Origin: a virus
Taxonomy: Duplodnaviria; Heunggongvirae; Uroviricota; Caudoviricetes
Reading direction: 5' to 3' (one strand)
DNA length: 22,540 nucleotides
Virus record (IMG/VR): IMGVR_UViG_2526164690_000046
The number at the start of each line of letters is the position of its first letter. Position 1 is the stretch's first letter. Positions 17,968-18,763 of the stretch are shown here, one piece after another. The notes below the pieces were generated by a model. That model saw only the letters and a list, made by a program, of their open reading frames with translations. It was not told the DNA's origin and ran no database searches. The position numbers and the translations under genes are program-made.

Positions 17968-18111
17968 AAATACTACTGCATGGTGAATCCCCCTGTGCGG
18001 AGGGGCAATCAGCAACCAGGTATATGTGATAATCGCGGATTCAGGTGCTGATACTGAATTCACCGGGAGGCACCCGGCACCATGCAAGAAAAAGAATGTG
18101 CATGCAAACAT

Positions 18112-18136
18112 GCCCCTCTCCGGTAGGGGCTTTTTT
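18112..18136 (+). terminator. Rho-independent terminator candidate
   Basis: GCCCCT / CTCCGGT / AGGGGC then TTTTTT. Confidence 0.55.
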
Positions 18137-18229
18137 AATGGGTAAAAAATGCCCGAATGGGTTCGGCAATAGCATGAGATTACTGATATTGTTGTGTTGT
18201 TATCGTGTGGATTTTAACCAGGGTTTATC

Positions 18230-18256
18230 AGGCTGCGCAACTGCGTGGCCTTTTTT
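18230..18256 (+). terminator. Rho-independent terminator candidate
   Basis: AGGCTGCGC / AACT / GCGTGGCCT (two G-U pairs) then TTTTTT. Confidence 0.4.
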
Positions 18257-18264
18257 CATTTCTT

Positions 18265-18309
18265 GGGCTGTAGTCCCCGTGTGTCATTCAGGCTTCCGGA
18301 CTACAGCCC
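18265..18309. repeat. 12-bp perfect inverted repeat GGGCTGTAGTCC ... GGACTACAGCCC with 21-nt spacer
   Basis: Arms at 18265-18276 and 18298-18309 are exact reverse complements. Confidence 0.75.
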
Positions 18310-18352
18310 ACTCCATATCTGATTTAATACACTATCCCGGCCGGGAGGAATA

Positions 18353-18601
18353 ATGACATTTAAACATTATGATGTTGTCAGGGCGGCGTCGCCGTCAGAC
18401 CTTGCGGAAAAGCTGACACACAAACTGAAAGAGGGCTGGCAGCCGTTTGGGAGTCCGGTGGCCATAACCCCTTATACCCTGATGCAGGCGATTACAGCAG
18501 AAGGTGATGTGGTGGTCAGTGGTGCAACTGAGCCGGAGCCGACCAAATCGCCCACCGGATATCACCGGAAAGCACCGGATAAGACAGGGATAACCCGCTA
18601 A
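18353..18601 (+). CDS. DUF1737-like small protein
   Basis: 82-aa ORF, GGGAGGA SD; ..DLAEKLTHKLKEGWQPFGSPVAI..LMQAI.. resembles DUF1737 as recalled; terminator follows. Confidence 0.55.
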   Translation: MTFKHYDVVRAASPSDLAEKLTHKLKEGWQPFGSPVAITPYTLMQAITAEGDVVVSGATEPEPTKSPTGYHRKAPDKTGITR

Positions 18602-18624
18602 TCACTTGATTGGCGGGTTTTTTT
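18594..18624 (+). terminator. Rho-independent terminator
   Basis: CCCGCTAATCA .. TGATTGGCGGG stem followed by T7 (18618-18624). Confidence 0.6.
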
Positions 18625-18632
18625 ATGTTTTT

Positions 18633-18661
18633 TAGTCACCGAACATCACCGGATTTATAAG
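18633..18661 (+). promoter_or_regulatory. Candidate int promoter within a conserved 27-bp motif
   Basis: TAGTCA (18633-18638), 17-bp spacer, TATAAG (18656-18661); motif GTCACCGAACATCACCGGATTTATAAG recurs upstream of alpA. Confidence 0.4.
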
Positions 18662-18678
18662 CTATCAGCCGGATTTTT

Positions 18679-18730
18679 TAGTTATACGTTTAGTTATACG
18701 GGCTGGCGTATAACTAAAGCCGTATAACTA
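18679..18730. repeat. Four copies of TAGTTATACG (two direct, two inverted) upstream of the P4-type integrase
   Basis: Direct copies at 18679-18688 and 18691-18700; inverted copies CGTATAACTA at 18707-18716 and 18721-18730. Confidence 0.8.
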
Positions 18731-18763
18731 AAACCCTGTTTTTTCGTGTGGAATCATAGACAT

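Follow-up and report, generated by a model that had tools for sequence, protein, structure and literature searches.

A tRNA-Pro phage-inducible island, probably inserted off-target in nanS-p, beside a conserved small-RNA module of a lambdoid prophage

The DNA considered here (hereafter the window) is a stretch of 22,540 nucleotides, IMG/VR virus record IMGVR_UViG_2526164690_000046 (Caudoviricetes), and represents a lambdoid prophage adjoining ttcA in E. coli of enterohemorrhagic (EHEC) type. An earlier note on positions 17968 to 18763 had pointed to a structured non-coding spacer, with no tRNA gene, ahead of a P4-type integrase, and had suggested that the spacer encodes a small RNA (sRNA) or marks the boundary of an island. 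Our results strongly favor the interpretation that this region joins a known prophage sRNA module, with the genes STnc100 and AgvB, to an off-target second copy of a phage-inducible chromosomal island (PICI) of the tRNA-Pro group, inserted inside the sialate O-acetylesterase gene nanS-p. The puzzling integrase without a tRNA and the unannotated structured spacer are thereby reduced to described biology. What is new is a site, rarely occupied, at which a known PICI group can insert, together with support for the crossover and the attR deletion behavior of that group: an ordinary tRNA-Pro PICI can insert off-target, in nanS-p and in rclA. For 2701 fis/hpt PICIs, Tommasini et al. (2023) reported no off-target relatives.

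The boundary of the island lies at 18538|18539, 186 bp inside an open reading frame (ORF) and not in intergenic DNA. At this point the BLAST alignment with the uninterrupted O26 prophage breaks off, and nanS-p resumes 8774 bp further on, outside the window, at position 29414 of locus L001, the matching region of E. coli O111:H11 88.0502 (NZ_CP077567.1), to which the window is 99.95% identical over 22 kb. The full element occupies L001 20640-29413 (8774 bp) and runs past the window end at 22540; of the nanS-p sequence, TG only was lost at the insertion. Since the O26 alignment breaks at 18538|18539, the ORF at 18353-18601, which the earlier note had taken for a DUF1737-like gene, is by this comparison a chimera of nanS-p and PICI. 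Its residues 1-62 (18353-18538, + strand; Pfam DUF1737, E = 4e-17) are identical to NanS-p of O26:H11 11368 as far as ...SGATEPE and are followed by 20 residues read from inserted DNA, with the stop codon (18599-18601) within the element. A boundary had thus been rightly suspected nearby, although not at its actual position. Judged from the truncated reading frame, the insertion inactivates one nanS-p esterase copy; each genome has ~13 nanS-p-like regions.

The absence of a tRNA or tmRNA gene was borne out, as ARAGORN found 0 genes in the whole window and Rfam no tRNA at the gathering score or at E≤1; as a positive control, ARAGORN recovered the tRNA-Pro(GGG) gene that adjoins this integrase at two proL loci, L003 and L006. 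On our interpretation no tRNA precedes the integrase because the PICI integrated off-target in nanS-p. The normal home of the element is proL. With window positions 18539-20100 as query, 435 of 5426 complete E. coli genomes carry the integrase at ≥60% identity and 188 at ≥99%, and among the matches listed those of ≥90% identity adjoin tRNA-Pro. In O26:H11 11368 the same element, with an identical integrase, is located between yejM-proL and yejO. The O111:H11 genome that matches the window holds the element twice, at proL (L006) and in nanS-p; the two copies are identical at 8773 of 8774 positions and differ by one 1-nt indel, whereas 15 substitutions separate the nanS-p copy from the O26 proL copy. 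From these differences we conclude that the second copy, in nanS-p, arose recently and within the same genome. The nanS-p/PICI junction was found in only 2 of the 5426 complete genomes, both of them near-identical O111:H11 bovine isolates, so the insertion is, on this distribution, a rare event and not the use of a dedicated site. In E. coli TW08637 (NZ_CP074721.1, L014 3297-12070) chromosomal rclA is interrupted by a third, independent insertion of this PICI, whose integrase protein is identical. An apparent insertion in bglX of E. coli Nissle 1917 (NZ_CP007799.1, L013) was rejected, as this older assembly is scrambled and has rRNA, clb and ybt fragments around the PICI left end.

The three insertion sites together fix the crossover at TCTCGTG. 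The empty proL site of K-12 reads ...AATCC TCTCGTG CCGACCAAAAATCCC; in the occupied gene attL reads ...TCTCGTG CCGACCAAATCGCCC and attR reads AAACTAC TCTCGTG CCAAAAATCCC, which is 4 bp short. For nanS-p, the empty site is ...ACTGA GCCGGAG TGGTACTACG, attL' is ...GCCGGAG|CCGACCAAATCG and attR' is AAACTAC TCTCGTG|GTACTACG, 2 bp (TG) short. Native rclA reads ...GATCA TCTCGTG GGAGTC, with a perfect 7-bp core, and its attR lacks one G. As the empty K-12 proL and the empty K-12 rclA both define TCTCGTG, this heptamer is the shared core, and the junctions place the exchange at attP TCTCGTG^CCGACCA at proL, nanS-p and rclA alike. An att core, which the earlier note had named among the findings that would refute it, is therefore present: the first bases of the PICI at the attL' junction (CCGACCA, 18539-18545, + strand) are the 3' end of tRNA-Pro(GGG) proL, carried by attP to rebuild proL. 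The joined attP circle would carry …AAACTACTCTCGTGCCGACCAAATCG…. An early reconstruction with CCAAA as the attP core was rejected when the K-12 attB, the nanS-p attL' with its CCGACCA and the rclA site revealed the 4-bp deletion in proL attR.

The deletions just 3' of the core thus amount to 4 bp in proL, 2 bp in nanS-p and 1 bp in rclA. Variable-length attR "damage" has been described for the tRNA-Pro PICIs SdCI1012, EcCIED1a and PcCISCRI1043, and the supplement of the same report (PMC10111431) gives CTCTCGTG, within the acceptor stem of proL, as the identity block of this group. The arm sequences in attL and attR of SdCI1012 and EcCIED1a are visibly those of the present element. The proL copies at L003 and L006 show this block, with attP carrying the tRNA 3' end and CCGACCA as the left end; the window copy shows the attR deletion and has no adjacent tRNA-Pro. 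In the proL attR the tRNA-Pro fragment (L003 17770-17790; L006) lacks the four bases CCGA, and precise excision would for that reason leave a damaged proL acceptor stem. Such attR damage was discussed as "addiction-like" by Tommasini et al. 2023 (PMC10111431). Our results add to that discussion insofar as the micro-deletion also occurs at targets that are not tRNA genes, and this argues for damage arising from the recombination reaction itself instead of from the tRNA sequence.

Both ends of the element carry repeated motifs. In the attP P' arm (18552-18654, + strand) there are three tandem copies of CACCGGA and one exact copy beside a degenerate one; L001 holds 23 matches where 4.3 were expected. 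The same repeats occur in SdCI1012 attL (PMC10111431 supplement). They are probable protein-binding sites in the P' arm, and may bind a regulator of the PICI. Tandem copies stand at 18553-18579, in that arm, and again at 20467-20483, between int and the next gene. Just upstream of int lie four copies of TTTAGTTATACG (18677-18734), two direct (18677-18700) and two inverted (18707-18734). Within 41 kb the doubled motif TTAGTTATACG is confined to three places, namely 18678-18700, 18707-18731 (in inverted orientation) and L001 29325-29347, 66-88 bp from the right end (6 matches in L001 against 0.31 expected, all at the two PICI ends). We regard it as a candidate arm-type site for the integrase, or for AlpA.

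Several observations weigh against our interpretation. The nanS-p overlap, GCCGGAG, agrees with TCTCGTG at only 3 of 7 positions, and lambda-type integrases normally need better overlap identity. To the left of the crossover nanS-p and proL agree at 11 of 18 positions, a match of which ~10^4 would occur by chance per genome, and by this count the resemblance alone would not account for the choice of site. Both genomes with the junction are near-identical and probably represent a single event. Finally, the window copies of AgvB and STnc100 contain 1-nt indels that weaken both terminators and are possibly sequencing errors.

The poor core identity, the two missing bases and the junctions without a direct repeat could also suggest that it was not the integrase that brought the PICI into nanS-p, but homologous or illegitimate recombination, mosaic exchange between phages, or misassembly. 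Two 8.8-kb copies and ~13 nanS-p-like regions per genome do make an error-prone setting for assembly, and the unrelated Nissle assembly CP007799 has a scrambled PICI context. However, each junction coincides, to the nucleotide, with the attP crossover seen at proL and rclA; no part of the element is missing between CCGACCA and ...CTCTCGTG, and its attR deletion follows the signature pattern of the group. Two complete assemblies moreover show the identical junction, as does the window, from which they are set apart by an insertion sequence (IS), and the PICI shares no homology with the prophage sequence around it. We therefore regard a route other than the integrase as highly unlikely.

Integrase-mediated, off-target insertion could have proceeded as follows. 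A PICI resident at proL would excise and replicate, and one circle would then reintegrate. Through its own Int, the circle would recombine with a pseudo-attB at codon 62 of nanS-p, in the same orientation as the late operon, while proL was still occupied. Exchange at the normal attP crossover, despite the 3/7 overlap identity, would leave a 7-nt tag of the tRNA 3' end on the left side of the element, as well as the 2-bp attR deletion typical of this group. The earlier note had suggested looking for a matching repeat at the other end of the island; none was found, as no direct repeat beyond 1-3 bp of microhomology flanks it, and we infer that the repeat is lacking because of the way the heteroduplex was resolved.

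The spacer upstream belongs to the prophage. Exactly 385 bp, as the earlier note had estimated, separate the stop (17967) of the small membrane-protein ORF on the left flank (DUF3927; 17779-17967, + strand; in the ORF list and in the RefSeq annotation of L001) from the nanS-p ATG at 18353. Rfam places an STnc100 gene (RF02076) at 17952-18142 on the + strand, scoring 135.1 bits (gathering score, 47) over all model positions (1-206/206); the family is related to PasD. Given this extent, the first of two hairpins singled out by the earlier note (18112-18136) is the intrinsic terminator of STnc100. Convergent with it, at 18144-18205 on the minus strand, lies an AgvB gene, an anti-GcvB sponge (RF02702; 75.9 bits against 56, model positions 1-62/62), whose own terminator, found by terminator scan, is located at 18166-18153 on the minus strand. 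The CA-rich 5' GcvB-mimic seed CAACACAACA is visible in the sequence, and the covariance-model alignment shows the terminator stem one base short in the window copy. The proposal of a small RNA gene between the two hairpins was thus correct in substance; there are in fact two sRNA genes, both of families already described in prophages, and the one between the hairpins, AgvB, is read from the opposite strand.

In this strain STnc100 is a predicted gene for a discrete sRNA, and AgvB is predicted, from its sequence and family, to be a 62-nt Hfq-dependent sponge that titrates GcvB. AgvB was described as an Hfq-bound GcvB sponge by Tree et al. 2014, who also reported that the convergent sRNA genes of lambdoid prophages are flanked by a conserved phage ORF and by a moron inserted downstream of PR', the promoter subject to Q antitermination (PMC4104026). 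A 2026 preprint related STnc100 to the PasD sRNAs, which lie upstream of the phage sialic-acid esterase gene (bioRxiv 10.64898/2026.05.13.724894). Neither gene is annotated by RefSeq at the L001 locus. As a scan for sigma-70 promoters across 17600-18800 found no consensus promoter, the promoters of both sRNAs are putative; what looks like an agvB promoter consists of TAAAAT, ~6 nt ahead of the 5' end of AgvB, with TTGCGC another 18 nt upstream.

Taken in order, the module comprises STnc100, AgvB, a second terminator on the + strand, a hairpin, a ribosome-binding site and the nanS-p ATG. Indels of the window itself aside, it is 99-100% identical in O26:H11 11368, where it precedes an intact NanS-p of 616 aa, and it is found at 72-94% identity in BP-4795 (Shiga toxin [Stx] 1), VT2-Sakai, Stx2-86, phi24B, phi315 and PhiR5_2. 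Conservation of the stretch, raised as a question by the earlier note, thus extends to Stx1 and Stx2 phages. Phages that lack the island carry the module just the same, so it is part of the prophage rather than of the integrase island; on this comparison 17968-18352 is the convergent-sRNA module conserved in lambdoid and Stx prophages, unrelated to the integrase. In a lysogen its terminators would keep unmodified transcription from nanS-p and the lysis genes, and Q-modified polymerase would read through.

Both terminator-like hairpins were confirmed on the + strand by terminator scan (18112-18130 and 18230-18251, each followed by T6); the interval 17600-18800 contains 6 such sites, compared with 1.3 ± 1.2 in shuffled sequences. 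The second (18230-18256) has a 9-bp stem, overlaps the putative agvB promoter and shows conservation among Stx phages. The inverted repeat is perfect and has the 21-nt spacer that the earlier note had described, but its arms (18264-18276 and 18298-18310) are 13 nt long and not 12, with 100% complementarity. As RNA this hairpin (18264-18310, + strand, in the nanS-p 5' leader) has a folding energy of -28 kcal/mol (z = -6.8), and across Stx phages its arms are kept, whereas the loop differs both in length and in sequence. In an alignment limited to seven phage sequences, 92.3% of cells are paired for the 13-bp hairpin, with two single-sequence two-sided changes, and 87.7% for the 18230-18256 hairpin, with no two-sided changes; the arms are mostly invariant, and uncompensated mismatches occur in Stx2 phages. 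We therefore describe 18264-18310 as a conserved leader hairpin of nanS-p with a putative role.

It could be argued that these structures form a novel regulatory RNA, or the att or boundary region of the integrase island. The hairpins are strong, the stretch is unannotated in RefSeq, and 18206-18352 has no Rfam match. Yet two thirds of the stretch consist of the curated families STnc100 and AgvB, the whole of it is conserved in prophages without a PICI and in free Stx phages, and the island boundary maps 186 bp further right, which refutes the boundary part of the argument. We attach very little probability to this explanation.

Turning to the PICI itself, its genes share a single orientation. 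The integrase (18764-20005, + strand; 413 aa, WP_000101718.1) is P4-type, as the earlier note had recognized, with the three-domain architecture Arm-DNA-bind_3 (PF13356, 4.6e-23), Phage_int_M (PF22022, 4.9e-25) and Phage_integrase (PF00589, 5.7e-29). It is followed by an AlpA-like helix-turn-helix protein (20502-20708, +; PHROG excisionase and transcriptional regulator), an Icd/Ash zone with isrK-like and C4-like RNAs (21521-21706, +, Rfam; Bro/Icd/Ash zone), an AAA_25 primase-helicase, a Terminase_2 N-domain protein (TerS-N-like) and a Phage_capsid-like protein. The RNA pair probably corresponds to the seqA/CI immunity RNAs of P4 type, an interpretation drawn from PMC10111431. Its matches overlap a 409-aa mechanical ORF (20723-21952) that is not one gene in RefSeq. 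Between the attL' junction and int lies a strong intrinsic terminator borne by the PICI (18592-18626, +; hairpin 18592-18619, 12-bp stem and T7, z -6.5, terminator scan), which stands directly downstream of proL when the PICI occupies its normal site.

The layout int, alpA, Bro zone, replication and late zone is that of Gram-negative PICIs (Tommasini, Mageeney & Williams 2023, PMC10111431), and the 8774 bp, the unidirectional genes and the int-alpA-Bro-primase/replication-late order of our element agree with it. On these features and its attP the element is a Gram-negative PICI of the SdCI1012/EcCIED1a tRNA-Pro group, for which induction and packaging by a helper phage are a predicted trait of the class. 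A 180-bp segment near its right end (L001 29100-29281; L016 3001-3179) is 97% identical to the right end of another satellite-like element, at phoQ in O157:H7, and may be a shared cos or packaging region. The wide occurrence of this segment in O157 had been considered as the cos site of a helper; this was rejected, as the match is the end of another satellite adjoining phoQ.

Helper-embedded PICIs (HE-PICIs) form 14 site groups in cognates of nine lambda late genes, with no nanS or esterase in the main text of the report, and have a doubled arm motif at fixed distances from the attP center (PMC10111431). One may thus ask whether nanS-p is a selected, dedicated site of a genuine HE-PICI and the surrounding prophage its helper. 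The location would fit: the element interrupts, in the same orientation, a gene belonging to the Q-dependent late transcription unit (here nanS-p, which stands between Q/PR' and the lysis genes), as published HE-PICIs do. Nevertheless, its attP still carries the tRNA-Pro replacement sequence, a near-identical copy occupies proL in the same genome, the junction is confined to two clonal genomes of 5426, and the same element is found in rclA. Nor is nanS-p among the 14 published sites, and the HE-PICI doubled motif TGTATTGC gave 0 matches with up to 2 mismatches. Comparison of the PICI with the surrounding prophage revealed no shared cos, homology arms or other common sequence. A genuine HE-PICI is consequently most improbable. 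Apparently the window PICI, judged from its arm motif and tRNA attB, is not of the HE-PICI type, and we file it as an off-target tRNA-Pro PICI that mimics an HE-PICI in what looks like an accidental way.

A variant of this question concerns function. Late transcripts passing the PICI terminator at 18592-18626 would enter int and alpA, and the nanS-p copy might then behave as a functional "accidental" HE-PICI, that is, a tRNA-targeting satellite just after its jump into a Q-antiterminated late unit. We consider such a functional role unlikely, and it should be read with caution. If true, prophage induction would drive int and alpA by read-through, and the element would represent a natural intermediate in which tropism for prophage late genes arises from ordinary tRNA-specific PICIs, as well as a case of an integrase tolerating a 3/7 overlap match.

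As for the surrounding prophage, its genes run int-xis-ralR/RalA-recET ... hokD/sok-RusA-Q-(TerB-like)-DUF3927, followed by the sRNA stretch and then the lysis and head genes. Two type I toxin-antitoxin RNAs are encoded, the RalA antitoxin sRNA with ralR (1557-1735) and the sok antisense RNA with hokD (14156-14331). The prophage integrase (1-1236, minus strand) is intact, whereas its counterpart at L001 761-3334 is split by ISVsa5, as it is in the other complete O111:H11 genome; on this difference the window derives from a genome or assembly related to, but distinct from, both. Twelve positions differ between the window and NZ_CP077567.1, 11 of them 1-nt indels. Six cluster at 17919-18180, in STnc100/AgvB, and further differences are located at 2453, 7115, 16727, 22146 and 22530. 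The clustered indels are singletons relative to all phage homologues, one of them removing a G-C pair from the AgvB terminator, and are possibly consensus errors at a ~13-copy repeat rather than true variation. The Q antiterminator gene (16362-17182), 273 aa and intact in the reference genomes, is broken into two overlapping ORFs in the window, where an A is absent at ~16727.

Phage lambda lysogenizes at secondary sites when attB is unavailable. The nanS-p insertion resembles this behavior in that a weakly similar pseudo-attB was used with the primary site occupied, and rclA provides a second off-target site, with a perfect 7-bp core; it is unlike it in the 3/7 overlap identity and in an attR with a small deletion. 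The sRNA module resembles the convergent site of AgvB/AsxR with a partner of STnc100/EcOnc27/PasD type (PMC4104026; RF02702, RF02076) in its position between the moron/DUF3927 ORF and nanS-p, its convergent layout, its full-length model matches and the CA-rich seed of AgvB; it differs in the 1-nt indels of both terminators, possibly errors, and in the disrupted downstream gene. With the HE-PICIs of Tommasini et al. 2023 the element has in common a location in a co-oriented late-unit prophage gene, a target disrupted without replacement sequence, and a doubled-motif geometry at its ends that parallels the HE-PICI arm motif, whereas its att specificity is for tRNA-Pro, its arm motif TTAGTTATACG is another, its site lies outside the 14, and its insertion is rare and apparently accidental. 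Its closest parallels are SdCI1012 and EcCIED1a (PMC10111431). The window copy differs from these in occupying a secondary site in a prophage gene instead of proL, with no flanking tRNA, and agrees with them in the left end ccgaccaaatcgcccaccggatatcaccgg..., the right-end arm motif, the ...aaactaCTCTCGTG end, the CTCTCGTG block, the attR deletion and the int-alpA-Bro-replication-late order.

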